Source: an uncultured virus (IMG/VR IMGVR_UViG_3300037657_000059) | Lineage: Duplodnaviria > Heunggongvirae > Uroviricota > Caudoviricetes | Virus record (IMG/VR): IMGVR_UViG_3300037657_000059 | DNA: 64,000 nt | Strand: one strand, 5' to 3' | Shown: positions 17,445 to 63,606 of the stretch, piece after piece | Layout of the letters: every line of letters starts with the position of its first letter | Position numbering within the stretch: position 1 is the stretch's first letter | The notes under the pieces: generated by a model | The model's input: the letters and a program-made list of their open reading frames with translations, nothing else | Told to the model about the DNA's origin: nothing | Databases searched by the model: none | Made by a program: the position numbers and the translations under genes

Positions 17445-18255
17445 TTTCTTCTTCCTTTCTTAGGATTTGATTGATTCTTTCGCGCAGGGATTGCGCCTCG
17501 CGTTCGTCTTCCTCATTAAACAGAGGGTCGCTGGCTTCCTCTTCTTCCTGAGGGATGACGTCCTGTATCGCCCGTAAAATATCAGGCGGAACATTTGAAA
17601 ATTGGTAAATTCCATTGATCATGGCTGCGTTTTCGGGAATGAATAACTTTTTCTCCGTATCCTCAACGATTCGATCCACAAAACCAAGGTCAACAGCTTT
17701 ATTGGCATCCATCCAGGTTTCATCGGTCATCAATTTCGATAACCTGGTGCGGGATAACCCTGTTTTGCGTTCATACGCATTCAAAATGCCTTCTTTGGCA
17801 GCCTGTAAGCTATCTGCCAGGCGGGTCATTTCATCCAGATTGATCTGGGCAAGGAAGATAACGATCGAAGGATCATGGACCATAAAATATCCTTGATTCC
17901 GGATCTCCACCTCATCCCCCGCAACGGCCACAATCGTGGCGGCGCTGGCAGCTACTCCCTCAATCTGTACGGACACTTTCCCGGGATAATCCCGGATAAT
18001 GGAATGCATCAGGCTGGCGGCAATCAGATCACCACCATAGGAATTGATTTTGACCCTGATATCCTTCCCCTTGCCCACATCGTACAGATCCTTTTTGAAT
18101 AACGCGGGCGTAATGTCGTCTTCAAACCATGAGTATTCGGATATATACCCAAACAACTCCAGAGTCGGATCACCTCCTTCATCAGCATTTCTGAAAGTCC
18201 AGAATGGCTCATGAGGTTTTGTATTACCCTCAAAACAACGGATTGGATTATTCAT
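17437..18255 (-). CDS. ClpP-like (S14) head maturation protease
   Basis: INSYGG, AASAA, FMVHDP, ETWMDA motifs. Confidence 0.92.
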   Translation of the reverse strand: MNNPIRCFEGNTKPHEPFWTFRNADEGGDPTLELFGYISEYSWFEDDITPALFKKDLYDVGKGKDIRVKINSYGGDLIAASLMHSIIRDYPGKVSVQIEGVAASAATIVAVAGDEVEIRNQGYFMVHDPSIVIFLAQINLDEMTRLADSLQAAKEGILNAYERKTGLSRTRLSKLMTDETWMDANKAVDLGFVDRIVEDTEKKLFIPENAAMINGIYQFSNVPPDILRAIQDVIPQEEEEASDPLFNEEDEREAQSLRERINQILRKEEENA

Positions 18256-19465
18256 TCATTACTCCTTTTTCAATAGGCAGGATATTCCCTGCCATATAAT
18301 GCACATCCCCATCCGGGTATGCGCTCATGTCATCTTTTTCGCGCCCTTCATTCGGGGTCATCATGCCGTTCTGAATGCGGATCGCCATTGATTCCGCTCT
18401 GGCTTTGCTATCCATCCTGAGCAATGCTTCCCGAATGAATTTGAAATACTGCGTTCTTTGCTCATCCCGTGATAACCACCGGATTCTGGCAGCCTCTTCC
18501 CAGGGCACCAGGTAAGAATCCAGTGTTCCCTGCAGATATTCCAGATATTTCTGTTCATTGCTGTTATAGGCTTCTTTGCCCCGATTCAGCATGTGCTCGG
18601 AAAGCCCAAAGAAGTTACAAATATCACGATCATTAGCATCAATGCTTTCCAGGAACTGGGCGTCTTTCATATTCATATTGATCGGCTCAAATTTGGTGAT
18701 CTTGTCATCAAATACGGCCAATCGGTAAGCGTTTTCCGAACCCGCCATTTGTTCTTCATAAGAAGTACGAACTTTTTTTCTGGCTTCCGCATTCAGATCA
18801 CCAGACATTTGAATGTACGCAGCTGGCATCATTCCCTGGGAATACAATCGGCTCTGTGTTTTATTTGCTGCCAATTGCCTTCCAAAAGTTTCTCTGGCAA
18901 ATGTGATCACGCCACGGCCAATAAACCCGGTCGAGTCTGGATTAATCAATTGGTGCAAAATTTCAACAGCGGGAATATAAGCCACCTGGTTATTGCTGAA
19001 TGTATGCCGATACCAGAGATTCCCATCCAGATCAAAAACAGGATAAGTACGATTGGCAGGCAAGATCAATAATTGTCTCGGCCCAACACTAGGGTTCCAG
19101 ATATAGTTATTGCCATAAAACAACTGCCATTCGATCGATGCTTTCTTAAATTGAAATGGCGTCCATCCCCAGATATTCGGGCTGACGGATAATAAATACG
19201 CCATGTTCCGGGTGATCGGGTCCGCTTCCACCTGTTTGATCGAGCGACCAATTTTCTGCATCACCTGAAATGGGATTTTCGCAACATCATCAGAAATAAT
19301 ATTCTTTGCCCGATGAGCGGTTGCAATCGACTGTGATTTTTCAATCGTTACCAGTTCGCCAGCCTGTGATCGATACCCAAACGAAGGCGCATAATCTGGT
19401 CTCGGGCTGGCATTTGTATCTTCCGTAATTTTTCGATTCGAGCTCAATAATTCACTTATTAACAT
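18248..19465 (-). CDS. Portal protein, HK97 family
   Basis: DAQFLES, SNEQ, LLRMD, MTPNEGR motifs. Confidence 0.92.
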   Translation of the reverse strand: MLISELLSSNRKITEDTNASPRPDYAPSFGYRSQAGELVTIEKSQSIATAHRAKNIISDDVAKIPFQVMQKIGRSIKQVEADPITRNMAYLLSVSPNIWGWTPFQFKKASIEWQLFYGNNYIWNPSVGPRQLLILPANRTYPVFDLDGNLWYRHTFSNNQVAYIPAVEILHQLINPDSTGFIGRGVITFARETFGRQLAANKTQSRLYSQGMMPAAYIQMSGDLNAEARKKVRTSYEEQMAGSENAYRLAVFDDKITKFEPINMNMKDAQFLESIDANDRDICNFFGLSEHMLNRGKEAYNSNEQKYLEYLQGTLDSYLVPWEEAARIRWLSRDEQRTQYFKFIREALLRMDSKARAESMAIRIQNGMMTPNEGREKDDMSAYPDGDVHYMAGNILPIEKGVMNE

Positions 19466-19625
19466 GGCTCTTAACCTTTCCGATCAGCACACCCCAGCCG
19501 ATCAACATCAAACCAGCTACCACCCAGGTGACAACCAGATTCCATTGGGCCAGCCCTACCAGGATACAAATACACCCGGCCACCAGTAAAATGTCATCCA
19601 TAAAACGATTAATGAATTGGATCAT
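19452..19625 (-). CDS. Small two-TM protein upstream of the portal gene (not in ORF track)
   Basis: Translated by eye: MIQFINRFMDDILLVAGCICILVGLAQWNLVVTWVVAGLMLIGWGVLIGK... Confidence 0.65.
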   Translation of the reverse strand: MIQFINRFMDDILLVAGCICILVGLAQWNLVVTWVVAGLMLIGWGVLIGKVKSHVNK

Positions 19626-20248: not shown

Positions 20249-21886
20249 TCACATACCCCAATCGCCTGAGAGAATCTCTTCACTCAGATCCACATTACCT
20301 TTGTAATTCAACGCCCGGCTCATCGCATTGGCCAATGCCACAATTGGATCGATACGTTTTGTCCGAACCACAGAGTTTCCTTTGTGTTCCTTCACGAATT
20401 TCATATTGCCATTTCCATTTTTCGCGATCGATGCATTTCCAAATGTCCACCTGGCAACCTTGTCATCCAAATGACTGATCTTTCCATCCCGGAAGAGCTT
20501 TTCCAGTGCATCAATCGGGGTGGTCATATTCAAAAATGTTTGAGGAATATCTACAATTTCAAGATCCTTTTTTGCCAGCCTTTGCATCAACATAGCTGCA
20601 AAATGCATGTCTGCATCCACTTCTTTAATCTTGTATGTTCTGGATATTTCCAGGATTTTCTCCTCAAGCACCATATAATCGACTGTATTCCCCTCCGTTA
20701 CATTAATCCACCCTTCGCGTTCATATTGGTCATATGGCAAATGGTCTCGCTCGATTCTTTCCTGCATTCCTTCCCTGGGAATGTAGGACCACCACAACAC
20801 GCGCCATTCAAGCATGGTGCCCTGTGGTGGAAATAGAAGCGCTAACGAGGTCAGGTCGGTCGTGGAAGAGAGATCAACACCCATATAACAATCCAGACCC
20901 ACCAGATCCATCTGATTCCACTGCCCAATGGTCTTATCAAATAAATCCACCGGTAACCAGGTTGTCAGTTTAGTCGTGATCCATTGATTCAAGCGCAACC
21001 AGCGGAATAGTCTTTCATCTGCAGGTTTTACCCTGGCTTTCTCCGCTGCCTCTTGCACTGATTCGACAGAGATAGTCACACCCAGTGAAGGGTTGGCTTT
21101 CGCCCAATTCTCTTCGTTATAAATATCGTCTCCATCGTAGGAGAAAATAACCGGGTACCAGGTAGGATCCTTTTCACCGGCAAGAATACGCATGGCATAA
21201 TCATGCTGTTCCCAGCCAATACTGACACGATCCGGATCATCCCCGGCAGTCGTGATAATCCACCAGATCGGTTGCGCGCGCGCATCACCAGCGCCAAAGG
21301 TCATCACGTCCCACAGTTCGCGATTCGGTTGGGCGTGTAATTCATCAAAAATAACTGCAGACACATTCAAACCATGTTTGGTGAATGCCTCAGCGGAAAG
21401 CACCTGATAAAAGGATCCTGAGACTTTATCAATAATCCTTTTCTTACTGGCAACAATCTTGGCTCGTTTCTGCATGGCTGGCAGCTGATCGATCATATCA
21501 ACCGCTACATCAAAAACAATCGATGCCTGGCCACGATCGGCAGCACAACCATACACCTCACCGTTTTTCTCGCCATCGGCAAACAGATGGTAAAGCGCAG
21601 CACCGGCCGCCATTTCAGACTTGCCATTCTTCTTGGGTACTTCCAGATATACGTACTTATATTGACGGTTGCCATCCGGTTTGATGGTCCCGTACACATC
21701 CTGAATAATATTCTTCTGCCAGTCGAGCAGCTCAAAAGACTTCGCATAAAACTTGCCTTTTGTGTGTTTCAGATTCTCAAAGAACCAGACAGCCCGATCT
21801 GCGCGTTTATGATCAAACATGGCTGCAGCTCCTGCCAGGTTCAGCACCAAAACGATGATCAGAATAACAAATATAAATCTCTTCAT
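20249..21886 (-). CDS. terL: Terminase large subunit with 22-aa signal-peptide-like extension
   Basis: Walker A PKKNGKS, Walker B FDELH, ITTAG, GVDLS, RIDPIVA. Confidence 0.95.
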   Translation of the reverse strand: MKRFIFVILIIVLVLNLAGAAAMFDHKRADRAVWFFENLKHTKGKFYAKSFELLDWQKNIIQDVYGTIKPDGNRQYKYVYLEVPKKNGKSEMAAGAALYHLFADGEKNGEVYGCAADRGQASIVFDVAVDMIDQLPAMQKRAKIVASKKRIIDKVSGSFYQVLSAEAFTKHGLNVSAVIFDELHAQPNRELWDVMTFGAGDARAQPIWWIITTAGDDPDRVSIGWEQHDYAMRILAGEKDPTWYPVIFSYDGDDIYNEENWAKANPSLGVTISVESVQEAAEKARVKPADERLFRWLRLNQWITTKLTTWLPVDLFDKTIGQWNQMDLVGLDCYMGVDLSSTTDLTSLALLFPPQGTMLEWRVLWWSYIPREGMQERIERDHLPYDQYEREGWINVTEGNTVDYMVLEEKILEISRTYKIKEVDADMHFAAMLMQRLAKKDLEIVDIPQTFLNMTTPIDALEKLFRDGKISHLDDKVARWTFGNASIAKNGNGNMKFVKEHKGNSVVRTKRIDPIVALANAMSRALNYKGNVDLSEEILSGDWGM

Positions 21887-22473
21887 TTTTCATTCGGTCC
21901 ATCGTTCACATAATCGGTCACCTCATTGAGAAAGGCTTCCAAAGGATCTTCTTCTTTTTCACGCTCTTTTTGGTTTGGAGCGACTCCAGCTCGTGATCGA
22001 GGAGTGAGATATAAATGCTGTCGCATCTTGAACATCAGATCGCGTTTCCGGTCCACTCTGCCATCCAGTTTCACAATCGCATCAAAAGAAGAGGTAACTT
22101 TATTGGCCATCATGAAGGCTTCGGTCTCCTGCCCGTTCTTCAGAAACTGGCTATACTGCTTCGAGAGAAACTTGTAGATCTCCCTGGAGGTTGCCCGCAT
22201 GCCATCCAGCTCAGATACCTGCTCAGCCAGCACACAATAATCCATCAGCAAATCGAGATCCAGCCTGGTGACAATCTCGCCTTCCACGCTGCGATATTCC
22301 CGCATGACTCTGCGCCATGTTTCGGCTGCCACTTTCATATCTTTCAGCTGGGCAGGAGCATTGACCGGCAATTGACGCGATGGTCTCAATCGCGCCTCCG
22401 ATTCTTCCCGTGCCTGGCTCTCGGCGGCCGTTTCATGTCTCACAATCAGGGCTTTTGGTTTTCGGGCTGGCAT
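21883..22473 (-). CDS. terS: Terminase small subunit (P27-like)
   Basis: LYLTPRSR motif; overlaps the terL start (ATGA). Confidence 0.85.
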   Translation of the reverse strand: MPARKPKALIVRHETAAESQAREESEARLRPSRQLPVNAPAQLKDMKVAAETWRRVMREYRSVEGEIVTRLDLDLLMDYCVLAEQVSELDGMRATSREIYKFLSKQYSQFLKNGQETEAFMMANKVTSSFDAIVKLDGRVDRKRDLMFKMRQHLYLTPRSRAGVAPNQKEREKEEDPLEAFLNEVTDYVNDGPNEK

Positions 22474-22474
22474 A

Positions 22475-22891
22475 TTAACTGGATTCTCCACATTGGGAAA
22501 TTAATTCACACGGCTCTACCCCCGCGCTTGACGTCCCCTCGAGCCAAACTTTTGAACCCCCCCTCCCCTCAGACGCAGTGACCCGCGAGTGACAGGAATG
22601 ACACAGAGACTCCAGCGGACTGGACCAGAAGAGATTTACATTTCCTTTATGGGCTATGGTGTGGTGAACATCAGTGGCAGCTTCGTATCGTTCCGCTGCC
22701 ATACAAGCCTCACACCAGGGATGCTTTGACAGATGATTGATCCTGCGTTTTTGCCAGGCGCGACCATACAACCGCTGCCGTACTGGATCACGATCCACAA
22801 TCCGTGGACGCTCATGAGCAGCACAATATCCGGATGCAACCAGCTCGGGGCATCCAGGGTACTTGCAGGGTTTCTTTGGTTTATTCGGCAT
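22475..22891 (-). CDS. Packaging-associated HNH endonuclease
   Basis: CKYPGC..C-x-x-H, C-x-x-C, VHH, LCHSCHS; upstream of terS. Confidence 0.88.
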   Translation of the reverse strand: MPNKPKKPCKYPGCPELVASGYCAAHERPRIVDRDPVRQRLYGRAWQKRRINHLSKHPWCEACMAAERYEAATDVHHTIAHKGNVNLFWSSPLESLCHSCHSRVTASEGRGGSKVWLEGTSSAGVEPCELISQCGESS

Positions 22892-25490: not shown

Positions 25491-25651
25491 TATTTATTTC
25501 CTTTCATCCTGATCAACTTGGTCTCCAACTCTTCAATTCTTTCCCGGTAAAATGCCAACGCTCGGTCGTTCTTTTCATAGTCCTCTTCCAGTATCGAAAG
25601 CATCATGCGGGCATACTCCAGCTCGATCTCTAGATCCAGCTTATTCGGCAT
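25490..25651 (-). CDS. Small coiled-coil protein (MPNKLDLEIEL...)
   Basis: Homologue at 62961-63167. Confidence 0.65.
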   Translation of the reverse strand: MPNKLDLEIELEYARMMLSILEEDYEKNDRALAFYRERIEELETKLIRMKGNK

Positions 25652-26090
25652 ACTTATCCTGCGGATCTTCCTTTTTCTTTCGCAGGATCTCCACCCCATC
25701 TTTCCACTTGCTGATCTCAATGATTGATTTCTCAGCAAAACTATGGTGATGATTGATCCTTTCCAATACCAGATCCTGTTTGCTGGATATCAGCTGCATC
25801 GATTGATTCAGCAGGAATATTGATTTCTGCTGCTCTTCCTGCAATCCCTTGATAAATCGATTGGTATGCGATATCAGCTCACGTTGAAAAGAGTCCCGCT
25901 TCTCCCCTTGCGCTTCATTCCATTGACGCTGCTTCTCAGATTCTGCAGCCTGGAATATACGTTCTTTCTCCCGTGTCTCTTCCCGGACCTTCGCCAATGC
26001 ATCCTCCCGCCTGAGCAGGAAGATCACAACAACAAAAATCAAAACAGCCATTGGCCATTGATTTGCAATGCTTGCCAGAATGGTTTCCAT
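25641..26090 (-). CDS. Single-TM holin-like protein (BhlA/UviB-like)
   Basis: N-terminal TM then coiled coil; near-identical copy at 63169-63606. Confidence 0.55.
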   Translation of the reverse strand: METILASIANQWPMAVLIFVVVIFLLRREDALAKVREETREKERIFQAAESEKQRQWNEAQGEKRDSFQRELISHTNRFIKGLQEEQQKSIFLLNQSMQLISSKQDLVLERINHHHSFAEKSIIEISKWKDGVEILRKKKEDPQDKYAE

Positions 26091-26473
26091 CAATACTCTC
26101 CCCCAATATTCCCTCTGTATGTTTGATTAACTGCCCTGGCAACCAGTTGGGTGATCAAACCCTTGATTAGATCATATAAACCGGAGGCAACCAGACCGAT
26201 CGCTAAACCATAAACGCCAACGCCAAACCAGTACACAAATAGAACATACCAATCCAGGGATAGAGGCGGCCGCTCTGACATGACCATAAAGCCACTACCA
26301 AAGAACAGCCCCAAAAACAATGAAAGCACCAGCAACCCATTCCCCGTGATCAGCTGGCTACCATCCTTCTTAGTAAGGCGTTTCGCCCACTCCACCAGAC
26401 CAAAAACAACAAACAATAATGGCACACCTTTGACCGCTGCCTGCAAAAATGATGTAAAGTCCAACTCCGCCAT
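26090..26473 (-). CDS. Holin (three TM)
   Basis: GLVEWAK..GLAIGLVASGLYD motif; first gene of the late operon. Confidence 0.7.
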   Translation of the reverse strand: MAELDFTSFLQAAVKGVPLLFVVFGLVEWAKRLTKKDGSQLITGNGLLVLSLFLGLFFGSGFMVMSERPPLSLDWYVLFVYWFGVGVYGLAIGLVASGLYDLIKGLITQLVARAVNQTYRGNIGGEY

Positions 26474-26496
26474 TCCATGCTCCTTCCCCATTACAC

Positions 26497-30702: not shown

Positions 30703-31174
30703 TACTTTCCTCCAGACAAAGTACATTAATCTGCGGCAATGCTCCAATAATTCCATCAACATCCAATTCACTGGCAGTGGATGGAATACCACCATACCCG
30801 GCACCAGGCAATTCAAGAAATCCAAACAAAGCTGCGGGATCAGCCTCAGCAGCGGTTAATATAGCCTTTACAAAATACAGCGCAATTCTCCCCATCTGAA
30901 ACCGGCTCTGTTCGTCTGCAGTACGTTTCTTACCACCAAAGGAATAAATCTTTTGTGGATGTTTACAGCTCAAAGGTTTGAATGCAAATCGATAAGACCG
31001 GTCATTCCATTGAAAACGAACTAACCAGGCATATTTGCCAGCAGATTGGCCACTCATAACCATAATTGCCTGAGCACCAAAAGCATCCAATAATTTAGTA
31101 ATCTCACCCTGGCTAATGGCTGGATGAACTGTAGTGTCCCAATAATTAGCATCTTCCGCGAATCTAATTTTCAC
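30695..31174 (-). CDS. Hypothetical phage protein
   Basis: GTG start after a GGAGG SD; coupled ORF. Confidence 0.55.
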   Translation of the reverse strand: MKIRFAEDANYWDTTVHPAISQGEITKLLDAFGAQAIMVMSGQSAGKYAWLVRFQWNDRSYRFAFKPLSCKHPQKIYSFGGKKRTADEQSRFQMGRIALYFVKAILTAAEADPAALFGFLELPGAGYGGIPSTASELDVDGIIGALPQINVLCLEESNE

Positions 31175-32031
31175 TATACAACCTCCGGAAACTGATTCCA
31201 TTCCACACCATCCAACAACCGGCCAGCGTTTTTCTTACCGACCCTTTCCGGATACCAACCAGCTATTTCTTTTGGCATATCAAAATAATTGTGAATCCAC
31301 TCTCCCCACTGCTTAAAGAAAAAAGACACCCCAGCATCAACACACTGATTCCGGATCGATCTCGCCCAATCCGGATGCATAGGACGTGCACCGGGACCAC
31401 TCTCCCCGCCAACAATCACCCAATCAATACCCTCATGATATTTAATAGGTTCAGGAGGTAACCCTGGATAAAATCCATAAGATCCGCGATGATCAAACAT
31501 CGATCCAAAAGTTTCTTCCCTGGTGGCAAATTTCCAAAAATCCACCGGACCCAATAACGGTTCACAACTCACAAATCTTACAGCAGCTGGCGTGTTCAAA
31601 AGAAGAGGAATTCTTTCATCAGCAGATTTCTGATCTTCCACACTCACCCCCAACCAAACGTTTGGTAAGTATCTTTCAGCATTCATTAAGTTAAACCAAT
31701 ACAGCATTTCTTTTGGCCTTTTTGTAAGGATCAAATAAGTGTGCTGAGGAGTCTTTTCCATCACCCGGAATACATCACCAATAAAATCATGATCAACATC
31801 CGGATGAAACAAATCACTCATCGAATTTACAAAAACGCGTGAAGGCTTTTTCCAACTTAAAGGCTGAGATAATCTCTCCGGGTGCATCCTCACTTCCGTA
31901 AACTTACGGTCCTTCCAAAACCGGCCGGCCAATCGTTCCGCATAACAATTCCGGCATCCTTCACTCACCTTCGTGCAACCGGTAATCGGATTCCAAACCC
32001 GATCCGCCCATTCAATTTTTGTTTTTGTCAT
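31174..32031 (-). CDS. DUF5131 (gp37/gp68) radical-SAM-like protein
   Basis: TKIEW..GCTKVSEGCRNCYA, FVNSMSDLFH, WVIVGGESG, FFFKQWG. Confidence 0.92.
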   Translation of the reverse strand: MTKTKIEWADRVWNPITGCTKVSEGCRNCYAERLAGRFWKDRKFTEVRMHPERLSQPLSWKKPSRVFVNSMSDLFHPDVDHDFIGDVFRVMEKTPQHTYLILTKRPKEMLYWFNLMNAERYLPNVWLGVSVEDQKSADERIPLLLNTPAAVRFVSCEPLLGPVDFWKFATREETFGSMFDHRGSYGFYPGLPPEPIKYHEGIDWVIVGGESGPGARPMHPDWARSIRNQCVDAGVSFFFKQWGEWIHNYFDMPKEIAGWYPERVGKKNAGRLLDGVEWNQFPEVV

Positions 32032-32258: not shown

Positions 32259-33063
32259 CTTTTCCTCTATGAGCTTTCAACTTATCCAACCTGTAACTCA
32301 CCATTTTTTTATTCCAGGAATGCCCCATGCGTACGGCAATCTCTTCATACGTCATACCAAGTTCATACCTGGCATACTCCATCCAATCATCGGCTCTGGT
32401 TCGCTCTTTTGATTTCGCCCTTTGCTGAGCAGCGCTGCTCGGAAAAAACTTGATCGTTTTAACCACGCTCTCGCGTACATACCAATTTCCATTCTGAATC
32501 GCTCCAGGAACTTTCCCTCTCCGAATCCTGGTATTCAATGTATTGGATACTTTATATCCAATCATCTCAGCCGCCTCCCCAATCGTAAGCCAGCGATCTC
32601 CCCAATTCTCCTGGGCACGCATCACCAACCGTTTAAGGTGAAAATCCTTCATATTTTCTACCTTGAAAAATACCCAGTGATTCGGTCTGGTGGCCCAGAT
32701 ATATAATGTAATTTTCCGGATATTCAGAATCCCCATTTCTCCAGGAATAATGAAAAAAGGCATCAACCCGGATTGAGACCACCTCATCACAGCATGGATA
32801 TCAACGCCCAGATACCTGGAAACATCATTTCCGGTCAACCATCCATTACGCTTGCTGGGTGGAGCGATTCCCTTGCGTGTGTGATGAATTTTTATTGCAC
32901 TTGGACTTCTTCCCAAAATTTCAGCCACACCTTCATAACCAAGAACACCCAGGTTTTCACTCAAAAATTTATCTTCTTCAAGTGACCATCGTTTTCGGAA
33001 ACAACCGGCTCTTTTTGGCGTTTCCTCCGCGATCATCATATTGATCATAAAATCAAGATTCAT
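32251..33063 (-). CDS. Multi-HTH (Myb-like plus excisionase-like) DNA-binding protein
   Basis: WSLEEDKFL; WLT-x-x-(D/E)-x-x repeats; TYEEIA. Confidence 0.6.
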   Translation of the reverse strand: MNLDFMINMMIAEETPKRAGCFRKRWSLEEDKFLSENLGVLGYEGVAEILGRSPSAIKIHHTRKGIAPPSKRNGWLTGNDVSRYLGVDIHAVMRWSQSGLMPFFIIPGEMGILNIRKITLYIWATRPNHWVFFKVENMKDFHLKRLVMRAQENWGDRWLTIGEAAEMIGYKVSNTLNTRIRRGKVPGAIQNGNWYVRESVVKTIKFFPSSAAQQRAKSKERTRADDWMEYARYELGMTYEEIAVRMGHSWNKKMVSYRLDKLKAHRGKDA

Positions 33064-33923
33064 TCAGTACCCCTCAATAAGCGGGAAACAAAAAACACAG
33101 CCGGACACTCTTTGCAAACTGTCTCGCTGGCCATATCTCGCAATGCACAATCATTACAAGTATTTTCAGCTGCAGCTTCCACCATCTCCCAGGGAGGGAC
33201 CTTGCCAACCAGTTGCAAAACATTCCAGCGTTTTGGATCGAAAGCGATTTCTTCCGTAGCTAATTTGATTGATGAAACCTTGGATCCAGCTCGAACCCTG
33301 TTATCAGATTGATTAGGAATTGAGCCTTTCACCTTATCAATAATTTTCAACATCTGTTTGATGCTCAAATTCGTTTTAGTAAACCGTTCAACCAGTTTCA
33401 ATCTGGTGTTAATCGGCAATGAAATCAAAGCCCAGCATAATCGCCGATCATGGGGCAATAACCTTTTTTCAATAAGCTCCTGGGTTTTTTCATCCAGATC
33501 CATCAAATCAATTCTGGAATTGATCGTCACAATATTCTTTCCGGTCATAATCGCAATCTGGTTTACCGAAAATCCATGCTCCATCGCCATTTTTTTATAA
33601 GCTCTGGCTTCTTCCATTGGGTTCAAATCCTCGCGTTGTACATTTGCCACAACAGCCTGAGTCAACCTATCCTTATCGCCCTCCGGAAGAGGATCCCGGA
33701 TAACAACCTCAATCGAATTCAAACCGGGAATCATCTGGCAGGCACGGAAGCGCCGTTCACCATCGATAATGAAATATTTCCCCGGCTTGATCTCCTCCAC
33801 CACCACCGGCTGGATCAATCCAACAGACTTGATCGATTCTGCCAGCTCAGTAAGAGCAGCCTTATCAAAATCTCGCCGTGGCTGTTGTGGATTTGGTTTA
33901 ATGTCTCGCAATGAAACTTTCAT
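33060..33923 (-). CDS. ParB/RepB/Spo0J-family protein
   Basis: PNPQQPR, GLIQP, DGERRFRA, REDLNPMEEA; Cys-rich C-terminus. Confidence 0.9.
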   Translation of the reverse strand: MKVSLRDIKPNPQQPRRDFDKAALTELAESIKSVGLIQPVVVEEIKPGKYFIIDGERRFRACQMIPGLNSIEVVIRDPLPEGDKDRLTQAVVANVQREDLNPMEEARAYKKMAMEHGFSVNQIAIMTGKNIVTINSRIDLMDLDEKTQELIEKRLLPHDRRLCWALISLPINTRLKLVERFTKTNLSIKQMLKIIDKVKGSIPNQSDNRVRAGSKVSSIKLATEEIAFDPKRWNVLQLVGKVPPWEMVEAAAENTCNDCALRDMASETVCKECPAVFFVSRLLRGTE

Positions 33924-34948: not shown

Positions 34949-34971
34949 TCTGATAACAGGTAGTTATCAGA
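34949..34971. other. Putative tyrosine-recombinase core site
   Basis: TCTGATAA-CAGGTAG-TTATCAGA overlapping the recombinase stop codon. Confidence 0.6.
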
Positions 34972-35929
34972 CAAAGCTTCTCAATAAATTCGAACACACT
35001 TCCTCAGCCCGTTTGTCCGAATTCCTCTCCATTTTATGGAGGTAAATTTGCGTAATCGCAAGGGAGGAATGATTCAGAAAATCGCGAATCTCCTCCACAT
35101 CAGCCCCCGCTTCCCGCCTTAAAAATGCAGCGGTATGCCGGAGGTCGTGCACCCTCACCCGGCCAGTTATCCCAGCCTCTTTAGCTCGATCCTTAACGAT
35201 CCTGGTAACATTCCGATCCGAGATAGGACCACCACCAGCGCGATTCCAAAATATATAATCGGTATACAACCGGCCACCGGTCGCAGCCACATACCGCGAA
35301 AGCAAATTCCAGAACTGATATGGGACATGAATCACATCGCTCTTGCCTTTACCCGTCCAGCGGAAGTAATAATCACCCTCGCGCAATTCGAAATCAACGA
35401 TCCTTGCAGATCTCCACTCCGTATTTCTGCGGCCAAGGATCAGGTAACCCGAGAGCAACACAAAATCACGCAGCCCAACCAGAGTTAAAAGATCACACGC
35501 ACCCAAAAGCTTCTTCGATTCTGCCGTGCTCAATGCCCGTGATCCGGCATAATGTTCCACCCTCGGCCGGATCGATTTCATCTCAGCCGGGTTATGGTCC
35601 ATCAATTGATACTCACTGATCGCGAAGGAATAAAAGGAGCTGATCGCACCCAGCCTGGCGCTGATCGTGGCCGGCTTCAATCCCTGCTGCTGTAATGCCT
35701 TTGCCCAGGTGCGCACATCCTCGCGCGTCATTGCTCCGGGGATTTTCCAAAAATGCTCCAGGAAAGCTTTCAGAGCATATTCATACGATCGGCGCGTGTT
35801 TTCAGATCTCCGGCTCTCCAACCAGGCTTTTTGGCAGTGCTCCCATTTGTTTCTCAGTGATTCATCCATTCGTATTGACCTTGTAGGGGCAATGGCTTGT
35901 CCTTGCCCGCGTGTGATATAATCAATCAA
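34967..35929 (-). CDS. Second tyrosine recombinase (XerC/D-like); likely start 35869
   Basis: SAM-like N-domain; GRR, GKGK, HDLRH, LNH, TQIY. Confidence 0.9.
   Translation of the reverse strand: MIDYITRGQGQAIAPTRSIRMDESLRNKWEHCQKAWLESRRSENTRRSYEYALKAFLEHFWKIPGAMTREDVRTWAKALQQQGLKPATISARLGAISSFYSFAISEYQLMDHNPAEMKSIRPRVEHYAGSRALSTAESKKLLGACDLLTLVGLRDFVLLSGYLILGRRNTEWRSARIVDFELREGDYYFRWTGKGKSDVIHVPYQFWNLLSRYVAATGGRLYTDYIFWNRAGGGPISDRNVTRIVKDRAKEAGITGRVRVHDLRHTAAFLRREAGADVEEIRDFLNHSSLAITQIYLHKMERNSDKRAEEVCSNLLRSFV
35883..35908 (+). repeat. GTAG-family REP-like palindrome
   Basis: GTAG-GGGCAA-N10-TTGCCC. Confidence 0.45.
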
Positions 35930-39579: not shown

Positions 39580-40509
39580 ATGAATACAAAAATCACCCTC
39601 TCTCAGGCAATTGCCGGCTATCTCATCAACCTCTCAGCCAGGCACCTCTCACAAAATACAGTAAATGACTATACGAACACACTCAATAAGCTCACAAAGC
39701 AGATCGGCAGTGACACACAGGTTTCCGATATCGGCATCGATCAGATCAATGCATTTCTGGCAGGCTTCACAGATCTATCCAACAAGACCCTCTCCAACTA
39801 CCACTCCACCCTTTCCACCTTTTTCGATTGGATGATAATCAACAAAATAATCACGGAGAATCCGGTCAATTTCGTACAGCGTGCCAAACCAGAAAGGCGC
39901 GTGATCGATCCCCTTCCGGAGCAGGAGATCAAATCGCTCCTGGATGCGGTCTACCATTCCAAATCCTACGCAAGACAGGGAAAAAAGACCTGCAAAAATT
40001 TACTTCACGACTCAGATCGCAACGTAGCAATCATTTTGTTTATCCTGGATAATGGTGTGCGCGTCTCGGAGCTTTGTGATTTACAAATCAAGGATCTTGA
40101 TCTCAAGCAGCTACGTGCTTTCATTCTGGGAAAGGGATCCAAAGAGCGCTTTGTCCCATTCAGTCCGCGCACCAGCCAGGCGATCTGGCGCTATCATTCC
40201 AGCCGCGGTGAGCTCTATCCGGATGATTTTGTTTTCGTCACGGACCATAACCGGCAGCTCAGGCGGGGTTACATTCTCAAGATGCTGACCAGGGCATCCC
40301 TGCGCGCCGGGATCTCGCACGTCCACCCACACAGACTCCGCCACACTTTCTCGGTCAATTATCTCAGAGCCGGCGGGGATATTTTCACCCTGCAGATGAT
40401 CCTCGGTCATGAGCATCTGGAGATGGTAAGGCATTACTCCAGGTTGGCGCAGTCGGATATTAAAAGAGCGCACAGGAGAGCAAGTCCTGTGGAGTTTTTG
40501 AGACTATAA
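39580..40509 (+). CDS. int: Tyrosine integrase (P2), close homologue of P1 int
   Basis: Same catalytic motifs; collinear with 464-1390. Confidence 0.95.
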   Translation: MNTKITLSQAIAGYLINLSARHLSQNTVNDYTNTLNKLTKQIGSDTQVSDIGIDQINAFLAGFTDLSNKTLSNYHSTLSTFFDWMIINKIITENPVNFVQRAKPERRVIDPLPEQEIKSLLDAVYHSKSYARQGKKTCKNLLHDSDRNVAIILFILDNGVRVSELCDLQIKDLDLKQLRAFILGKGSKERFVPFSPRTSQAIWRYHSSRGELYPDDFVFVTDHNRQLRRGYILKMLTRASLRAGISHVHPHRLRHTFSVNYLRAGGDIFTLQMILGHEHLEMVRHYSRLAQSDIKRAHRRASPVEFLRL

Positions 40510-58050: not shown

Positions 58051-60102
58051 CTAGCCTGCTGAAATCAAACAATCACAGCCACTATGCGCCGGTGGATGCC
58101 TCACATTCTGATAAACTTTCAACTCATCCGCACCTTCCGGTCGCAGAACATCCCCGACCTGTAAAAACCATTCCTGCATGCCAACCTTGCGGCCATCCAA
58201 TGATTTGCAATACGGGCAGCTTTCCCCGTAAGAATTCCAATACAGCGCGGCTACACCGGCAGCAGCATACACAAACACGGAAACAGCACCATTCAAACGC
58301 ACCGATTCCTCCTGGCCAAATGTCCCGGCCAACCTGTCCCAACCGCTCAGGTCGTTTTCCAATGTCTCATAAGTATCTGCTCCGGAGGAGAGCGCTTTCG
58401 CCAATAAATTATTCACACGGGTTTTCTGATCAAAAGCATGCCGATCAGCCAATGCTTCCAGATAGCGTTTCACAAATCGGCGTACCTGTTCAATATCCAG
58501 ATCACCCAGCAGCACTTCATCAGCTGCCTCTGCAGCCACCAGCTCCGCATAAGCGGTCATGGTCCCGCGCAAAGCACCCTGAATAAAATCTTTGTGCTCT
58601 TCGTAATATTCATCCAGCCAGATCTGCAATTCCTGCAGACTGCGTTTCCCCAGGATCTTCTTGGCAGTGGTAAGGATGTCACGCGCTTCCCGCTTCACGA
58701 TTCGCTCAGCCACTTCACTGATCACCGGTCGTTGACTCAACATCAAGCGCCGCCTGGTCCCGGCTGAGCGTGCCCGTTTTTCTCCAGGAGAATTGTTTTC
58801 TCTTTCAATCGGAGGAGCACTCAGAAATTGAATATCATCCACATTAAAGCGTTTTTCCAGATCCTTCATGCTGATATTGCTGCGAAAATCTTCCGCTTTA
58901 TCCGCTGGAATCATATTCAGCGGTACATAATGGGTATCACCGCCATCAATCGGGTTCAGGTTCTCTTTCTCCCGGATTTCATTCCACGTAAGCCATCCAT
59001 CCTGCCAGGCCTGATGATATGCCTGATATCGGCTTTGGGTATCACCACGCAGCATTGCATCCACGTTGAATTCGGCAAAATGTGTCTTTTTTTCCGTTTC
59101 TGTAAATAAACAGCGCAATAATTCCTGCTCCCAGCGAACCAGCCACGGTCGCAGGGTATAAATCACAAATTCAAGACTCATCTGCTCGATATTTGAGAAG
59201 GTAGCCCGTTCCAGATCAGCCAGGCGATGCGGAGGAATTAAGAAGATCCTCGCAATCTCACTCACCTGAAACTTTCTGGTCTGTAAGAACTGTGCATCTT
59301 CCGGAGGGATCCCGATCTGGTTATATTTCATGCCCTCTTCCAGAATCGCCACCCGGTGTGAATTATCCAGCCCCTGGTGCATCTCGTTCCAGCTGGATTT
59401 CAAGCGGGTATGTGCATCATCACTCAAAGAACCGGGATGTTCGAGCACACCGCCAGCCTTGGCACCATTTCCAAAAAAGCGCGAACCAAATTCCTCGGTA
59501 GCAGCTGCCAACCCAAGTGCATTTCGTGCCTCACGGATCGGAGAATAACCGAGCATGCCATCCGAGCTCAATCCGCGGATGTGTAAAACACGTTCAGCGG
59601 GTAAACCAACCCGTCCGCCGCCCTGGCTCTCCGGAAGTGTGGTCACATAGTAGAGTTTTCCATCCACCCAGCGCATTTCTGTCTGATCCGGTCGCAATGG
59701 CCAGAGTGCCTTGATTCTGCCAGCATTATCACTTTCAATCTCTGAGAAACAATTTCCCCAGGTGCAGCAATGCCCCATCATGGTTTCACGCCACATAAAA
59801 CTGGTCATCAATGGATTCGCCTGGTCATGCAGAACCCGGTACAGAGGATGATTGACGTCACGTTCCTTCCCGCGTGAGAGACGTTTATAAATTGGCAGTG
59901 GTAAACTGGCCAGTCCTTCTGAAAGGATCCGAACGGATGCCCAAACAGCAGTCAATTGGATCGATCGCTGCGGAGATACACTTAACCCGCTGGGTGTTTC
60001 CCAATTATTCATCCCGCGCATCTTCGTGATCAATCCCCAACCGGAATTCTCGTCCAGTGACCTTCTTTCGAATAAGCTCCGTAAAATACCGACTTCGCTC
60101 AT
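58051..60102 (-). CDS. HK97 portal fused to a Mu gpF/SPP1 gp7-like domain
   Basis: DAQFLQTR, FSNIEQ, NEIREKEN; C-terminal CPYC..HPPAHSGCDC. Confidence 0.88.
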   Translation of the reverse strand: MSEVGILRSLFERRSLDENSGWGLITKMRGMNNWETPSGLSVSPQRSIQLTAVWASVRILSEGLASLPLPIYKRLSRGKERDVNHPLYRVLHDQANPLMTSFMWRETMMGHCCTWGNCFSEIESDNAGRIKALWPLRPDQTEMRWVDGKLYYVTTLPESQGGGRVGLPAERVLHIRGLSSDGMLGYSPIREARNALGLAAATEEFGSRFFGNGAKAGGVLEHPGSLSDDAHTRLKSSWNEMHQGLDNSHRVAILEEGMKYNQIGIPPEDAQFLQTRKFQVSEIARIFLIPPHRLADLERATFSNIEQMSLEFVIYTLRPWLVRWEQELLRCLFTETEKKTHFAEFNVDAMLRGDTQSRYQAYHQAWQDGWLTWNEIREKENLNPIDGGDTHYVPLNMIPADKAEDFRSNISMKDLEKRFNVDDIQFLSAPPIERENNSPGEKRARSAGTRRRLMLSQRPVISEVAERIVKREARDILTTAKKILGKRSLQELQIWLDEYYEEHKDFIQGALRGTMTAYAELVAAEAADEVLLGDLDIEQVRRFVKRYLEALADRHAFDQKTRVNNLLAKALSSGADTYETLENDLSGWDRLAGTFGQEESVRLNGAVSVFVYAAAGVAALYWNSYGESCPYCKSLDGRKVGMQEWFLQVGDVLRPEGADELKVYQNVRHPPAHSGCDCLISAG

Positions 60103-60257
60103 ATTTTTCTACCTCCAAACAACAGCCCGGCGAGACTCACCAGCACAAGCACGATTCCAGCCGAAATCAAAGCGGCAGGAATGCTCAACATTCCGATGCC
60201 GGAAATCAAACATCCAAAACCAATCAGGAAAATGACATCATTGCGATCAATTTTCAT
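60099..60257 (-). CDS. Small two-TM protein upstream of the portal gene (not in ORF track)
   Basis: MKIDRNDVIFLIGFGCLISGIGMLSIPAALISAGIVLVLVSLAGLLFGGRKI; ATGA overlaps on both sides. Confidence 0.65.
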   Translation of the reverse strand: MKIDRNDVIFLIGFGCLISGIGMLSIPAALISAGIVLVLVSLAGLLFGGRKI

Positions 60258-61891
60258 AATGTCCTGATCCCCCGTTCGTTATAAACAGATCCGGAACTGG
60301 AATAATTCAACGCCCGGCTCATCGCATTCGCCAATGCCACAATCGGGTCGATCCGTTTGGTTCGCACAACGGACTTTCCCTTGTGTTCTTTCACAAATTT
60401 CATGTTTCCATTACCGTTTTTCGCAATGGATGCATTCCCAAACGCCCAACGCGCAACCTGGTCATTTAAATGACTGATTTTGCCATCCCGGAAGAGCTTT
60501 TCCATCGCATCAATCGGGGTGGTCATATTTAGAAATGTTTGTGGAATATCAACAATCTCAAATCCATGTTTTGACAGTCTTTGCATCAACATGGCTGCAA
60601 AATGCATATCCGGATCGATCTCTTTTATTTTGTAAATTTTCGATAATTCCAAAATCTTGTCCTCTACCACCGTATAATCGACCGTGTTCCCTTCGGTCAC
60701 AGTGATCCAGCCTTCCTTCTCCCACTTGTCATAAGGCACTTTGTCCCGCTCGATCCGTTCGGCCATGCTTTCCCTGGGAATATAGTTCCGCCAGATAATT
60801 CGCCAATCTGCAATGCCTGCCTGGGGAGGAAACAAAAACGATAAAGAAGTAAGATCGGTTGTGGAAGAGAGATCGACCCCCAGGAAACAATCCATTCCCA
60901 CCATATCCATCTCATTCCATTGGCCAATGGTCTTATCAAAAAGATCAATCGGCAACCAGGTCGTCAATTTGGTCGTGATCCACTGATTCAGTCTCAGCCA
61001 GCGGAATAATCGCTCATCTGCGGGCTTAATCATTGCTTTTGCAGCCGCTTCCCGAACTGATTCGATCTGGATTGTCACCCCAAGGGATGGATTAGCCTTA
61101 AACCAATTTTTTTCTTCATAAATATCTTTTTCTCCATCGTAGGAGAAAATCACAGGATACCAGGTAGGATCAATCCGATCTCCGGATAATAACTGCATGG
61201 CATAATCATGCTGCTCCCAACCAATCGAAACACGATCCGGATCATCACCGGCAGTGGTAATCACCCACCAGATCGGTTGCGCGCGCGCATCACCAGCCCC
61301 AAAAGTCATCACGTCCCACAATTCGCGATTCGGCTGGGCGTGTAATTCATCAAAAATAACGGCAGAAACATTCAAACCATGTTTGGTATATGCCTCAGCT
61401 GAAAGTACCTTATAAAATGAACCGGTAACCTTATCGAAAATCTGTTTTTTACTGGCTACAATTTTGGAACGTTTTTGCAAAGCTGGCAGCTGGTCGATCA
61501 TATCCACCGCTACATCAAAAACAAGAGATGCCTGCTCCCGATCAGCCGCGCATCCGTACACCTCGCCATTTTTCTCACCATCTGCAAACAAATGATAAAG
61601 AGCAGCACCGGCTGCCATTTCGCTTTTTCCGTTCTTCTTAGGCACTTCCAGATAAACATACTTAAATTGACGGTTACCGTCCGCTTTCACCGTCCCATAC
61701 ACATCCTGGACAATACTTTTTTGCCAGGATAACAGTTCAAAAGGCTTTCCGGAAAATTTGCCTTTGGTGTGTTTGAGGTGCTCAAAAAACCAGACAGCAC
61801 GGTCAGCGCGTTTTTGGTCAAACATTGCCGCAGCTCCTGCCAGGTTGATCACCAAAACGAAAATCAAAATGGAAAAAATAAATCTTTTCAT
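60254..61891 (-). CDS. terL: Terminase large subunit (P2) with signal-peptide-like extension
   Basis: Collinear homologue of 20249-21886. Confidence 0.95.
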   Translation of the reverse strand: MKRFIFSILIFVLVINLAGAAAMFDQKRADRAVWFFEHLKHTKGKFSGKPFELLSWQKSIVQDVYGTVKADGNRQFKYVYLEVPKKNGKSEMAAGAALYHLFADGEKNGEVYGCAADREQASLVFDVAVDMIDQLPALQKRSKIVASKKQIFDKVTGSFYKVLSAEAYTKHGLNVSAVIFDELHAQPNRELWDVMTFGAGDARAQPIWWVITTAGDDPDRVSIGWEQHDYAMQLLSGDRIDPTWYPVIFSYDGEKDIYEEKNWFKANPSLGVTIQIESVREAAAKAMIKPADERLFRWLRLNQWITTKLTTWLPIDLFDKTIGQWNEMDMVGMDCFLGVDLSSTTDLTSLSFLFPPQAGIADWRIIWRNYIPRESMAERIERDKVPYDKWEKEGWITVTEGNTVDYTVVEDKILELSKIYKIKEIDPDMHFAAMLMQRLSKHGFEIVDIPQTFLNMTTPIDAMEKLFRDGKISHLNDQVARWAFGNASIAKNGNGNMKFVKEHKGKSVVRTKRIDPIVALANAMSRALNYSSSGSVYNERGIRTL

Positions 61892-62499
61892 TTTTTATCA
61901 TGCCCACCGGGTACATCTTTTCCATCGTTTACATAATCTGTGACCTGATCGAAGAATTCACCCCACGGATCAGTCTTTTTATCTTCCGGCTCTTTTTGTT
62001 TTGGAGCGACTCCAGCTCGTGATCGCGGCGTGAGATACAAATGCTGTCGCATCTTGAACATAAGATCTCGTTTGCGGTCCACTCTGCCATCCAGCTTTAT
62101 AATCTGATCCATCGAGCCTTGAATCTTTTCCACCATCATCACGGCTTCAACAACATTTCCCTCATCAATAAACTTGCTGTGCGCTTCAATCAGCAGCTGG
62201 TATATCCTGCGTGTGTTGGAGCGCATATCATCCAGCTCACTTACCTGCTCAGCCAGCACACAATAATCAACCAGCAGGTCAAGATCAAAGCGGGTCACAA
62301 TCTCGCCCTCTGTGGAGCGATACTCGCGCATGACTCTGCGCCAGGTTTCCGCTGCAGTCTTCATCTCCCGGATCGCAGCTGGGGCATTGGTCGGCAATTG
62401 TCGCGCTGGTCTTAGCATAGACTCAGATTCCTCGCGTGCCTGGCTCTCGGCCGCCGTATTATGTCTCACAATCAGGGCTTTTGGTTTCCTAGCGGGCAT
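61888..62499 (-). CDS. terS: Terminase small subunit (P2)
   Basis: Homologue of 21883-22473. Confidence 0.85.
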   Translation of the reverse strand: MPARKPKALIVRHNTAAESQAREESESMLRPARQLPTNAPAAIREMKTAAETWRRVMREYRSTEGEIVTRFDLDLLVDYCVLAEQVSELDDMRSNTRRIYQLLIEAHSKFIDEGNVVEAVMMVEKIQGSMDQIIKLDGRVDRKRDLMFKMRQHLYLTPRSRAGVAPKQKEPEDKKTDPWGEFFDQVTDYVNDGKDVPGGHDKK

Positions 62500-62971
62500 T
62501 ATCGGGATTCTCCACATTGGGAAATTTTTTCGTACAGCACTTCCGCTGCGGTCTCGTGTGCGAACCTGGTAGAGATTTCGACCCCCCTATCCCCCCGGCC
62601 GTGGATGACCTACCGAATCCTGAATCAATAGCCGCGGTCTTTCGACTGTGACAACTCTTGCACAATGGCTGCAGATTATCCATCCGGTTGGTACCACCCT
62701 CGCTCAGTGGGACTATGTGGTCCACCTCCGTGGCTACAACTACCTCCCCAATCTCAGCGTGCACCCCCCATATATCAGAACATAGGGGTACTCTTGACAG
62801 CACCAACCCCCTCAGCTTACGCCAATTGGAACCATACCCCCTACTTGCAGCACTACCCCGCCTCAGATCATACCCCCTACTCTCAGACTTATGGGTACCA
62901 CAATATGCCCCATCGCTTACCAGCTCGGGGCATCCAGGGTACTTGCAGGGTTTCTTTGGTTTATTCGGCAT
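62489..62971 (-). CDS. Packaging-associated HNH endonuclease (P2)
   Basis: VDHIVPL..GGTN..NLQPLCKSCHS. Confidence 0.88.
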   Translation of the reverse strand: MPNKPKKPCKYPGCPELVSDGAYCGTHKSESRGYDLRRGSAASRGYGSNWRKLRGLVLSRVPLCSDIWGVHAEIGEVVVATEVDHIVPLSEGGTNRMDNLQPLCKSCHSRKTAAIDSGFGRSSTAGGIGGSKSLPGSHTRPQRKCCTKKFPNVENPDNAR

Positions 62972-63167
62972 ACTCATCCTGTGGATATTTATCCTGTTGA
63001 TACTTATCCTGTGGAACTTCCAAATCTTTCATTTCTTTTTCCAGTTCAGTGATCCGATCCCGGTAGTACTGCAATCCTCGATCATTCAGTTCATGATCAT
63101 CTTCGAGGATTGCCAGCATTAACCTGGCATAATCCAGCTCGATCTCCAGATCCAGCTTATTCGGCAT
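62961..63167 (-). CDS. Small coiled-coil protein
   Basis: Homologue of 25490-25651; C-terminal 5-aa repeats. Confidence 0.65.
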   Translation of the reverse strand: MPNKLDLEIELDYARLMLAILEDDHELNDRGLQYYRDRITELEKEMKDLEVPQDKYQQDKYPQDEYAE

Positions 63168-63168
63168 A

Positions 63169-63606
63169 CTAATCCTGCGGATCTTCCTTTTTCTTTCGCA
63201 GGATCTCCACCCCATCTTTCCACTTGCTGATCTCAACGATTGATTTCTCGGTAAAGATATGATGGTGATTGATCCTTTCCAATACCAGATCGGTCTTACT
63301 GGATACCAGCTGGATCGATTGGTTTAAAAGGGAAATGGATTTCTGTTGATCTTCCTGCAATCCCTTGATAAATCGGTTCGTGTGGGTTATTAACTCTCGC
63401 TGGAAATTATCCCGCTTCTCACCTTGCGCTTCATTCCACACACGCTGCTTCTCAGATTCTGCAGCCTGGAATATACGTTCTTTCTCCCTTGTTTCTTCCC
63501 GGACCTTTGCCAGCGCATCCTCCCGCCTGAGCAGGAAGATCACAACAACAAAAATTAAAACAGCCATTGGCCATTGATTTGCAATGCTTGCCAGAATGGT
63601 TTCCAT
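63169..63606 (-). CDS. Single-TM holin-like protein
   Basis: Homologue of 25641-26090. Confidence 0.55.
   Translation of the reverse strand: METILASIANQWPMAVLIFVVVIFLLRREDALAKVREETREKERIFQAAESEKQRVWNEAQGEKRDNFQRELITHTNRFIKGLQEDQQKSISLLNQSIQLVSSKTDLVLERINHHHIFTEKSIVEISKWKDGVEILRKKKEDPQD

Follow-up and report, generated by a model that had tools for sequence, protein, structure and literature searches.

A hydrophobic leader and a retained internal start in the large terminase of Anaerolineae-associated tailed phages suggest a dual-start gene

The large terminase (TerL), the most conserved and best-studied protein of tailed phages, is regarded as a soluble motor of the cytoplasm. Here we describe the terL genes found in 64,000 nucleotides of DNA from an uncultured virus assigned to Caudoviricetes (IMG/VR record IMGVR_UViG_3300037657_000059); this whole stretch is called the window below. 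It holds two tandem siphovirus-like prophages, P1 and P2, with the late genes of both on the minus strand, and in both of them terL opens with a 22-codon hydrophobic leader in front of the usual terminase sequence. We consider it somewhat probable that terL is a dual-start gene both in these prophages and in most members of an Anaerolineae-associated TerL clade, which would give a soluble TerL and a longer, membrane-associating isoform.

Behind the leader, TerL is of a familiar kind. Residues 23-545 correspond to an ordinary Terminase_1-type TerL (PF03354 plus PF20441), as found in HK97-like cos phages with an adjacent HNH gene. In both window copies the matches to the two domains begin at about residue 55, and they lie above the Pfam gathering cut-offs of 23.7 and 24 (PF03354, TerL_ATPase, 81.3 bits in P1 and 90.3 bits in P2; PF20441, TerL_nuclease, 130.4 and 129.3 bits). 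The TerLs of Firmicutes phages and prophages are 45-50% identical to residues 23-545 and begin exactly at the position of Met23. HK97-like cos phages also share the gene order HNH-terS-terL-portal, which in each window prophage is interrupted only by a small open reading frame (ORF) with two predicted transmembrane (TM) segments between terL and portal. What differs is a hydrophobic N-terminal extension of 14-34 residues, which is found in this clade only: it is absent from all 150 distant representatives (at most 62% identity) and from the GenBank phage matches.

Genes with two in-frame starts have experimental precedent. In Escherichia coli, speA, bamA, ivy and yghG have 5'-proximal in-frame internal starts that yield forms lacking the signal sequence (Meydan et al., 10.1101/520783). 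These genes resemble terL in that one ORF has two in-frame starts, the long product carries a signal sequence and the short one is expected to be cytoplasmic, and the internal start shows an SD-like (Shine-Dalgarno-like) sequence together with local constraint on synonymous sites; in E. coli the exported form is taken as the primary product (10.1101/520783). In terL, by contrast, it is the cytoplasmic enzyme that came first, the leader having been added later, coupled to terS, within a phage structural operon, and both starts are predicted from sequence. A second parallel is offered by the S105/S107 and S68/S71 holin/antiholin pairs of lambda and phage 21, which come from two nearby in-frame starts and differ at a membrane-active N-terminus, the extra residues beginning Met-Lys. 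Those forms differ by 2-3 residues and both are membrane proteins, whereas in terL 22 residues add the sole hydrophobic segment to a soluble enzyme.

Membranes have also been connected with head assembly and packaging. T4 gp17 is not known to have a hydrophobic leader. Prohead initiation in T4 has the gp20 portal on the inner membrane with gp40 and YidC (PMC9958956). This resembles the present case in that head assembly of a tailed phage can be sited at the membrane, with attachment through small or accessory viral factors; it differs in that the portal and not the terminase is membrane-associated, and there is no homology to the leader or the two-TM protein. At the packaging vertex of PRD1, the ATPase P9 occurs with P20 and P22, which are integral membrane proteins (PMC4267777). 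This again is a packaging ATPase at a lipid bilayer with small transmembrane proteins, but the membrane is internal to the virion and the ATPase is of the FtsK/HerA type, whereas the phages considered here are siphovirus-like tailed phages with a portal and TerL. A full-text literature search, with subscription journals outside its scope, found no description of a terminase with a signal peptide or TM leader. The novelty is a clade-wide, selected and signal-anchor-like extension, together with a retained ancestral start, on an otherwise ordinary TerL.

The leader, its frame and its distribution

The features of the two terminase loci are as follows.

20249..21886, minus strand: P1 large terminase gene (terL), assigned by Pfam; 545 aa in the long form and 523 aa in the short form that begins at Met23
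21821..21886, minus strand: P1 TerL leader, 22 codons, MKRFIFVILIIVLVLNLAGAAA; its ATG (21886..21884) overlaps the terS stop TGA (21885..21883) as ATGA
21818..21820, minus strand: P1 internal (ancestral) TerL start ATG, Met23; the same position is the start in leaderless relatives
21829..21833, minus strand: P1 AGGAG SD-like motif, 8-nt spacer to Met23, embedded in leader codons A-G-A; anti-SD duplex -7.2 kcal/mol
21883..22491, minus strand: P1 small terminase (terS), Terminase_4-like by a weak Pfam match, with a stop TGA that overlaps the ATG of the leader
60254..61891, minus strand: P2 large terminase gene (terL), assigned by Pfam; long form 545 aa
61826..61891, minus strand: P2 TerL leader, 22 codons, MKRFIFSILIFVLVINLAGAAA; its ATG (61891..61889) overlaps the terS stop TGA (61890..61888)
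61823..61825, minus strand: P2 internal (ancestral) TerL start ATG, read from the sequence
61834..61838, minus strand: P2 AGGAG motif, 8-nt spacer to the internal ATG
61888..62517, minus strand: P2 small terminase (terS), assigned by Pfam

An earlier, sequence-only reading of the window had described this arrangement, and its description holds for both copies: each TerL opens with a 22-codon leader of MKR followed by hydrophobic residues, the long-start ATG overlaps the terS stop as ATGA, and AGGAG lies 8 nt upstream of Met23. Codon-by-codon comparison of the P1 and P2 leaders also returns the six synonymous and three replacement codons (V/S, I/F, L/I) that it had counted, with no indel; in Nei-Gojobori terms these are 7.5 synonymous and 4.5 non-synonymous nucleotide differences. 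A run of A lies just before the ATGA in both copies (AAAAA in P1, 21883-21895, and AAAAAA in P2, 61888-61900, both on the minus strand). Fusion of TerS to the leader by a -1 slip at this run was considered and rejected, the run being missing at the junction in most relatives, and it is probably incidental.

Genome, viral and metagenome collections provided 428 related loci, which reduce to 331 unique TerL 5' regions including the two window copies. In each locus the codon aligned to Met23 was found, and the in-frame sequence was read upstream to the preceding stop. A leader was scored where the mean Kyte-Doolittle value over 10 residues was at least 2.5, which is our own threshold; hydrophobicity was judged with simple scales, and the anti-SD motif was likewise our choice. 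A hydrophobic in-frame leader is present in 56/331 unique loci, all of them inside the group of at least 59% identity. Among the best 120 database protein homologues (61-100% identity), 95 have a leader and two more fall just below the threshold, while 21 start at or near Met23 and two are truncated; the database starts therefore disagree, 95 being called long and 21 short. It is worth adding that one leader-bearing homologue of 895 aa carries intein/LAGLIDADG-type domains (PF14528, PF14890) and is an intein-containing member of the clade.

Five leader-bearing loci come from named genomes, and all five are from Anaerolineae: Bellilinea caldifistulae GOMI-1, one Bellilinea metagenome-assembled genome (MAG), two Anaerolineaceae MAGs and one Anaerolineae MAG. 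A scan of 401 genomes of the class of Bellilinea gave four TerL matches at E<=1e-100, and the only close one was a single locus (L002/L242, L002 being that of B. caldifistulae GOMI-1). Because the scan gave so few close loci, most of the DNA evidence comes from viral and metagenome contigs.

Outside the clade the leader is not seen. Three of the 150 distant representatives did pass the hydrophobicity filter, but they are N-terminally truncated fragments in which the hydrophobic window is the internal GKSELAAA region, and they were rejected. The leader clade collapses below 50% clustering, so that the representative library yielded only distant leaderless controls. A search of 50,697 GenBank phage records gave no match of at least 60% identity, and all 15 among the matches listed begin at query residue 23. 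The earlier statement that model-type and distant TerLs lack such leaders is thus in agreement with the wider sample.

Evidence that the leader is translated comes from its frame. The 56 leaders come in ten lengths (14-34 residues, median 19.5), all of them in frame. The long start is ATG in every one of them. A terS gene could be identified in 53 leader loci, and in all 53 the gap from its stop to the ancestral start is 2 mod 3, over a range of 38-101 nt; the junction of terS with the leader is ATGA in 51/53. In leaderless relatives the terS stop abuts or overlaps the TerL start at the Met23 position, the commonest gap being -1, again as ATGA, which shows the leader to have been inserted, in frame, after the former coupling junction and ahead of the former start. 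Inspection of 22 leaderless clade members found no separate small ORF and no leader remnant, with terS ending within a few nt of the TerL start.

Selection on the peptide, which had been suggested from the two window copies, is upheld by the homologues. Within the P1 subclade (seven sequences) the ratio of non-synonymous to synonymous differences per site (pN/pS) is 0.28 for the leader, which indicates purifying selection, as compared with 0.12 for the first 100 mature codons, and the leader differences at codon positions 1/2/3 number 83/22/107. U occupies codon position 2 in 59% of codons over the 56 leaders, against 26% in mature TerL, and the residues N-terminal of the hydrophobic run carry a net charge of +2 in 52/56. 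Across the clade the leader's amino-acid sequence turns over almost fully, and charge and hydrophobicity are kept. Since these are the only properties conserved, the signature is that of a targeting or anchoring peptide and not of a folded domain. No stop or frameshift was seen inside the leader among the 56 leader-bearing loci. These patterns indicate that the leader is a translated, coding and selected feature, beyond what would be expected by chance.

The history of the leader was followed on a tree of 99 rows, made by a quick maximum-likelihood search (LG+G4, Shimodaira-Hasegawa-like approximate likelihood-ratio test (SH-aLRT) support, midpoint root). The rows are 78 full-length loci that either have the leader or reach at least 64% identity over residues 23-140, together with every sixth remaining locus at 59% or more; three leader-bearing loci with no complete ORF in the locus were omitted. 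All 53 leader rows fall in one 71-row clade, along with 18 leaderless rows, and neither the basal branches of this midpoint-rooted tree nor the 24-row Firmicutes-type outgroup has a leader. Presence and absence of the leader require a minimum of eight state changes, and none of 500 label shuffles gave a number as low. The simplest history would have the leader gained once and cleanly lost about seven times; either state could also have spread by recombination at the terS-terL junction. The leader appears to be of long evolutionary standing in the Anaerolineae-associated TerL clade.

The internal start codon and its Shine-Dalgarno sequence

In the 56 leader loci, the codon aligned with Met23 is ATG in 51, GTG in four and TTG in one, the last being a case of uncertain alignment (L284). 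Two loci have an ATG one codon upstream, giving M-P-F. Wherever valine is encoded at this position, the codon is GTG (4/4). At the protein level, 82 of the 95 leader-bearing homologues have Met and 12 have Val, Ile and Leu being absent, and the single exception (P0114) is a misalignment with Met four residues upstream. ATA is mutationally as near to ATG as GTG is, and selection for a start codon therefore fits better than selection for a hydrophobic side chain.

Pairing with the anti-SD sequence was predicted on the 18 nt upstream of each start. For the internal start, the duplex has a median of -7.2 kcal/mol over the 56 loci, and 41/56 are at -6 kcal/mol or below; for 1577 control in-frame ATG and GTG codons in the same terL genes the median is -3.3 kcal/mol, and for the long start it is -5.8 kcal/mol. 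Pairing is stronger at internal starts than at controls (Mann-Whitney p 1.7e-22, ignoring relatedness), although this value overstates independence because the loci are related. In the window, both internal starts give -7.2 kcal/mol and the long starts give -3.0 (P1) and -6.2 kcal/mol (P2). The sequence CTGGCAGGAGCT is unchanged in six of the seven P1-subclade sequences, and the two Ala codons that follow it vary freely; its invariance implies synonymous-site constraint on the SD.

A two-isoform gene predicts that the internal start codon and an SD-like sequence in front of it will be kept, and the earlier interpretation is supported to that extent: the internal start with its own SD is conserved in relatives, with a start codon in 56/56 and pairing stronger than in controls. 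Both marks by which a dual-start gene can be recognised in sequence, namely a conserved internal start codon and a ribosome-binding sequence before it, are present.

Membrane association and the competing explanations

The leader has the n-region and h-region layout of a Sec-type signal, with a +2 charge in 52/56 and a 10-residue Kyte-Doolittle maximum of at least 2.5 in 56/56 (this being the selection criterion). The sequence-only reading had in addition seen an A-x-A ending exactly before Met23. This stands for both window copies, which have AAA, but not for the clade, where small residues occupy positions -1 and -3 in only 35 (strict) to 39 (loose) of the 56 leaders. The end of the leader is rich in Gly, Ala and Val (GGN, GCN and GTG codons), and the same codons make up the G-rich SD of the internal start. 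Since the leader end is thus at least partly dictated by the SD, A-x-A is not safe evidence for signal peptidase, and it may in part be an RNA-level by-product of the embedded SD.

A Sec substrate would also be expected to have a charge-poor early mature region, whereas here the first 12 mature residues hold 2-3 K/R in 46/56 leader loci, and the mature N-terminus is alike in leader-bearing and close leaderless relatives. Sec translocation is impeded where positive charge immediately follows a signal sequence, and the substrates of TerL (ATP, DNA and procapsids) are cytoplasmic. For both reasons, efficient export of the TerL body is unlikely.

The uncharged hydrophobic span is 12-23 residues long, with a median of 19 and 18 or more in 38/56; it is 21 residues in both window copies, counting the M-F after the leader. 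Such a span is predicted to suffice for a signal anchor in most loci, the shortest being nearer to the h-region of a signal peptide. AlphaFold2 models residues 2-18 as a helix, the first and second blocks of ten residues having pLDDT (predicted local distance difference test) values of 84 and 63. An insertion energy of the Hessa type, crudely calculated with no position weighting, is uninformative, as it runs from -6.6 to +6.7 kcal/mol over the 56 leaders. Two other kinds of signal were rejected. The window leaders have no Cys, and the Cys found in the leaders of some relatives is not at a conserved position, which speaks against a lipoprotein signal. A Tat (twin-arginine translocation) signal has a twin-arginine motif, a long n-region and a mildly hydrophobic h-region, and the window leaders go directly from MKR into I/L/V/F-rich sequence.

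The explanation that we favour runs as follows. An in-frame insertion of 14-34 codons would have arisen between the ancestral terS/terL ATGA junction and the ancestral TerL start. Ribosomes ending terS would re-initiate at the overlapping ATG and translate the insertion, and the amount of the long isoform would be tied to translation of TerS. The N-terminus of this long TerL would be a +2-charged, strongly hydrophobic helix, like a signal peptide or signal anchor. Free 30S subunits would initiate at the retained ancestral ATG or GTG by way of the SD-like sequence in the last leader codons, giving a short isoform that would be the canonical soluble TerL and form the packaging motor. The hydrophobic helix would bring some of the TerL to the cytoplasmic membrane, with the body of the protein most likely remaining on the cytoplasmic side, since positive charges follow the helix; part of the terminase activity or assembly would thereby be placed at the membrane. 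We infer that both isoforms are made and that the long one is membrane-associated.

Several observations weigh against this explanation. Pairing with the anti-SD sequence before the internal start is weak (above -6 kcal/mol) in 15/56 loci, and Met or Val at that position could be kept for structural reasons. The leader has been lost at least about seven times on the tree, and any function that it has must therefore be dispensable or accessory. The uncharged span is under 18 residues in 18/56, which is short for a membrane-spanning helix. Finally, the +2 charge on the N-terminal side predicts an N-in orientation, which would require the export of a 523-aa cytoplasmic enzyme.

It has also to be asked whether the long product has a positive role at all. 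It could be a by-product or a regulator, the leader coupling terL to terS and routing the product to the signal recognition particle (SRP) and Sec, to aggregation or to proteolysis, thereby limiting or timing active TerL; the sequence-only reading had raised this idea as titration. We regard this as unlikely. The repeated loss just described is in keeping with it, as are the poor conservation of the sequence apart from charge and hydrophobicity and the positive charges after the helix in 46/56 loci, given their general effect on export. A pN/pS of 0.28 and retention of the leader in 53 of the 71 clade rows nevertheless imply a benefit, and plain down-regulation could be achieved without a hydrophobic peptide.

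Conversely, it might be the long form only that matters, as an anchored or signal-peptidase-cleaved TerL that packages at the membrane, with the internal ATG a mere conserved Met. An invariant long-start ATG (56/56), coupled to terS by ATGA in 51/53, is what such a gene should have, and the 15/56 loci with weak pairing before the internal start point the same way. Membrane-sited head assembly is made conceivable by the neighbouring two-TM family and by the membrane-bound portal initiator of T4 (PMC9958956). We nevertheless find this account quite unlikely: the internal position shows start codons only (Val being GTG in 4/4, with no Ile or Leu in 95 proteins), its SD is strongly enriched, and several sublineages have lost the leader without trace and begin at the former ATG, which implies that the unanchored protein is fully functional.

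True export, in which a Sec signal peptide would be cleaved after A-x-A and free TerL or its nuclease outside the cell, is very improbable. The succession of n-, h- and c-regions, with AAA just ahead of Met23, in both window copies, and the small residues at -1 and -3 in 35-39/56, do suggest it, but the -1/-3 rule fails in 17-21/56 and is confounded by the SD codons, 2-3 K/R stand in the first 12 mature residues, the mature N-terminus is the same in leader-bearing and leaderless relatives, and everything that TerL needs (ATP, DNA, procapsids) is in the cytoplasm. Least credible of all is an annotation artefact, in which the 66 nt would be an untranslated spacer, open in frame by luck, and TerL would start at Met23 only: the P1 SD is indeed good before Met23 and poor before the long ATG (-7.2 against -3.0 kcal/mol), and 21 of the best 120 database proteins are called from the short start, but 53/53 gaps are in frame over ten leader lengths, the codon-position pattern (83/22/107) and U at position 2 (59%) are those of coding sequence, the N-terminus is +2 in 52/56 and the junction ATGA in 51/53, and the 22 inspected leaderless clade members have no spacer at all.

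Neighbouring genes and possible role in packaging

The other genes of the packaging modules are the following.

22475..22891, minus strand: P1 HNH endonuclease, upstream of terS, assigned by Pfam
19452..19625, minus strand: P1 small two-TM protein of 57 aa, encoded between terL and portal
18248..19465, minus strand: P1 portal protein, 405 aa, assigned by Pfam
62489..62977, minus strand: P2 HNH endonuclease, assigned by Pfam
60099..60257, minus strand: P2 small two-TM protein of 52 aa, with a start that overlaps the stop of terL
58051..60102, minus strand: P2 portal protein, 683 aa, assigned by Pfam

The small two-TM gene between terL and portal, to which the sequence-only reading had drawn attention, was confirmed as an ORF in both prophages. 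The two ORFs belong to one family (hmmsearch E 3.8e-21 and 1.4e-13), whose members are 49-91 aa long and encoded just after terL, often with an overlap of the terL stop. The family occurs in 38/51 leader-bearing, 15/23 close leaderless and 10/215 distant loci. Its frequency in close leaderless loci led us to reject it as a leader-specific companion, and from this distribution it is a trait of the wider clade that is not tied to the leader. It is compatible with a membrane connection of the packaging module. In P1 only, a 196-aa MptE-like gene (PF01973; 19622-20212, minus strand) is inserted between terL and the two-TM ORF, and in many relatives this ORF lies 400-1200 nt after terL rather than overlapping its stop, which suggests a recurrent insertion slot.

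As to the remainder of the window, P1 extends from about 0.4 to 39 kb and P2 from 39.6 kb past the window end, and there are three tyrosine integrase genes (464-1390, 34967-35929 and 39580-40509). Head, tail and lysis genes are recognised by Pfam. The terS, terL and HNH genes and the genes upstream of them are near-identical between P1 and P2, whereas the head modules differ, P1 having a ClpP-type protease and a P22-coat-like capsid and P2 an S78 protease and an HK97-type capsid; this looks like mosaicism around the packaging module. In the P2 portal, Pfam covers residues 52-381 only, and the C-terminal extension of about 300 aa, which has no assignment, carries a Cys/His-rich motif at its end. 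Both prophages keep, upstream of the HNH/terS/terL block, a pair of membrane-protein genes with no Pfam match (25641-26491 and 63169-63986, both minus strand), one member having an N-terminal TM segment followed by a coiled-coil-like region and the other being multi-TM and holin-like. The early region of P1 encodes a DUF5131 protein (E 2.5e-101) and a ParB-like nuclease/helix-turn-helix protein (31174-32031 and 33060-33923, both minus strand).

If the dual-start explanation is right, it could be taken one step further, and we offer this tentatively, as a rather doubtful proposal. In phages of Anaerolineae, genome packaging would take place at the cytoplasmic membrane: N-terminally anchored, terS-coupled TerL would nucleate or dock the portal or procapsid-terminase complex on the bilayer together with the two-TM protein, and the soluble isoform would supply the remaining subunits of the pentameric motor. 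No earlier large terminase of a tailed phage would then have been membrane-anchored.

The system can be reached by experiment, since there is a leader-bearing prophage in a host that has been cultured, Bellilinea caldifistulae GOMI-1. The finding is also relevant to annotation, because gene callers are split on the start of TerL in this clade, and it would show neatly, in a natural case, how a dual-start gene comes about when codons are inserted in frame where two genes are translationally coupled. For the phages themselves, a selected leader together with a kept old start would imply either a previously unrecognised membrane organisation of packaging or a new two-isoform regulation of the terminase.

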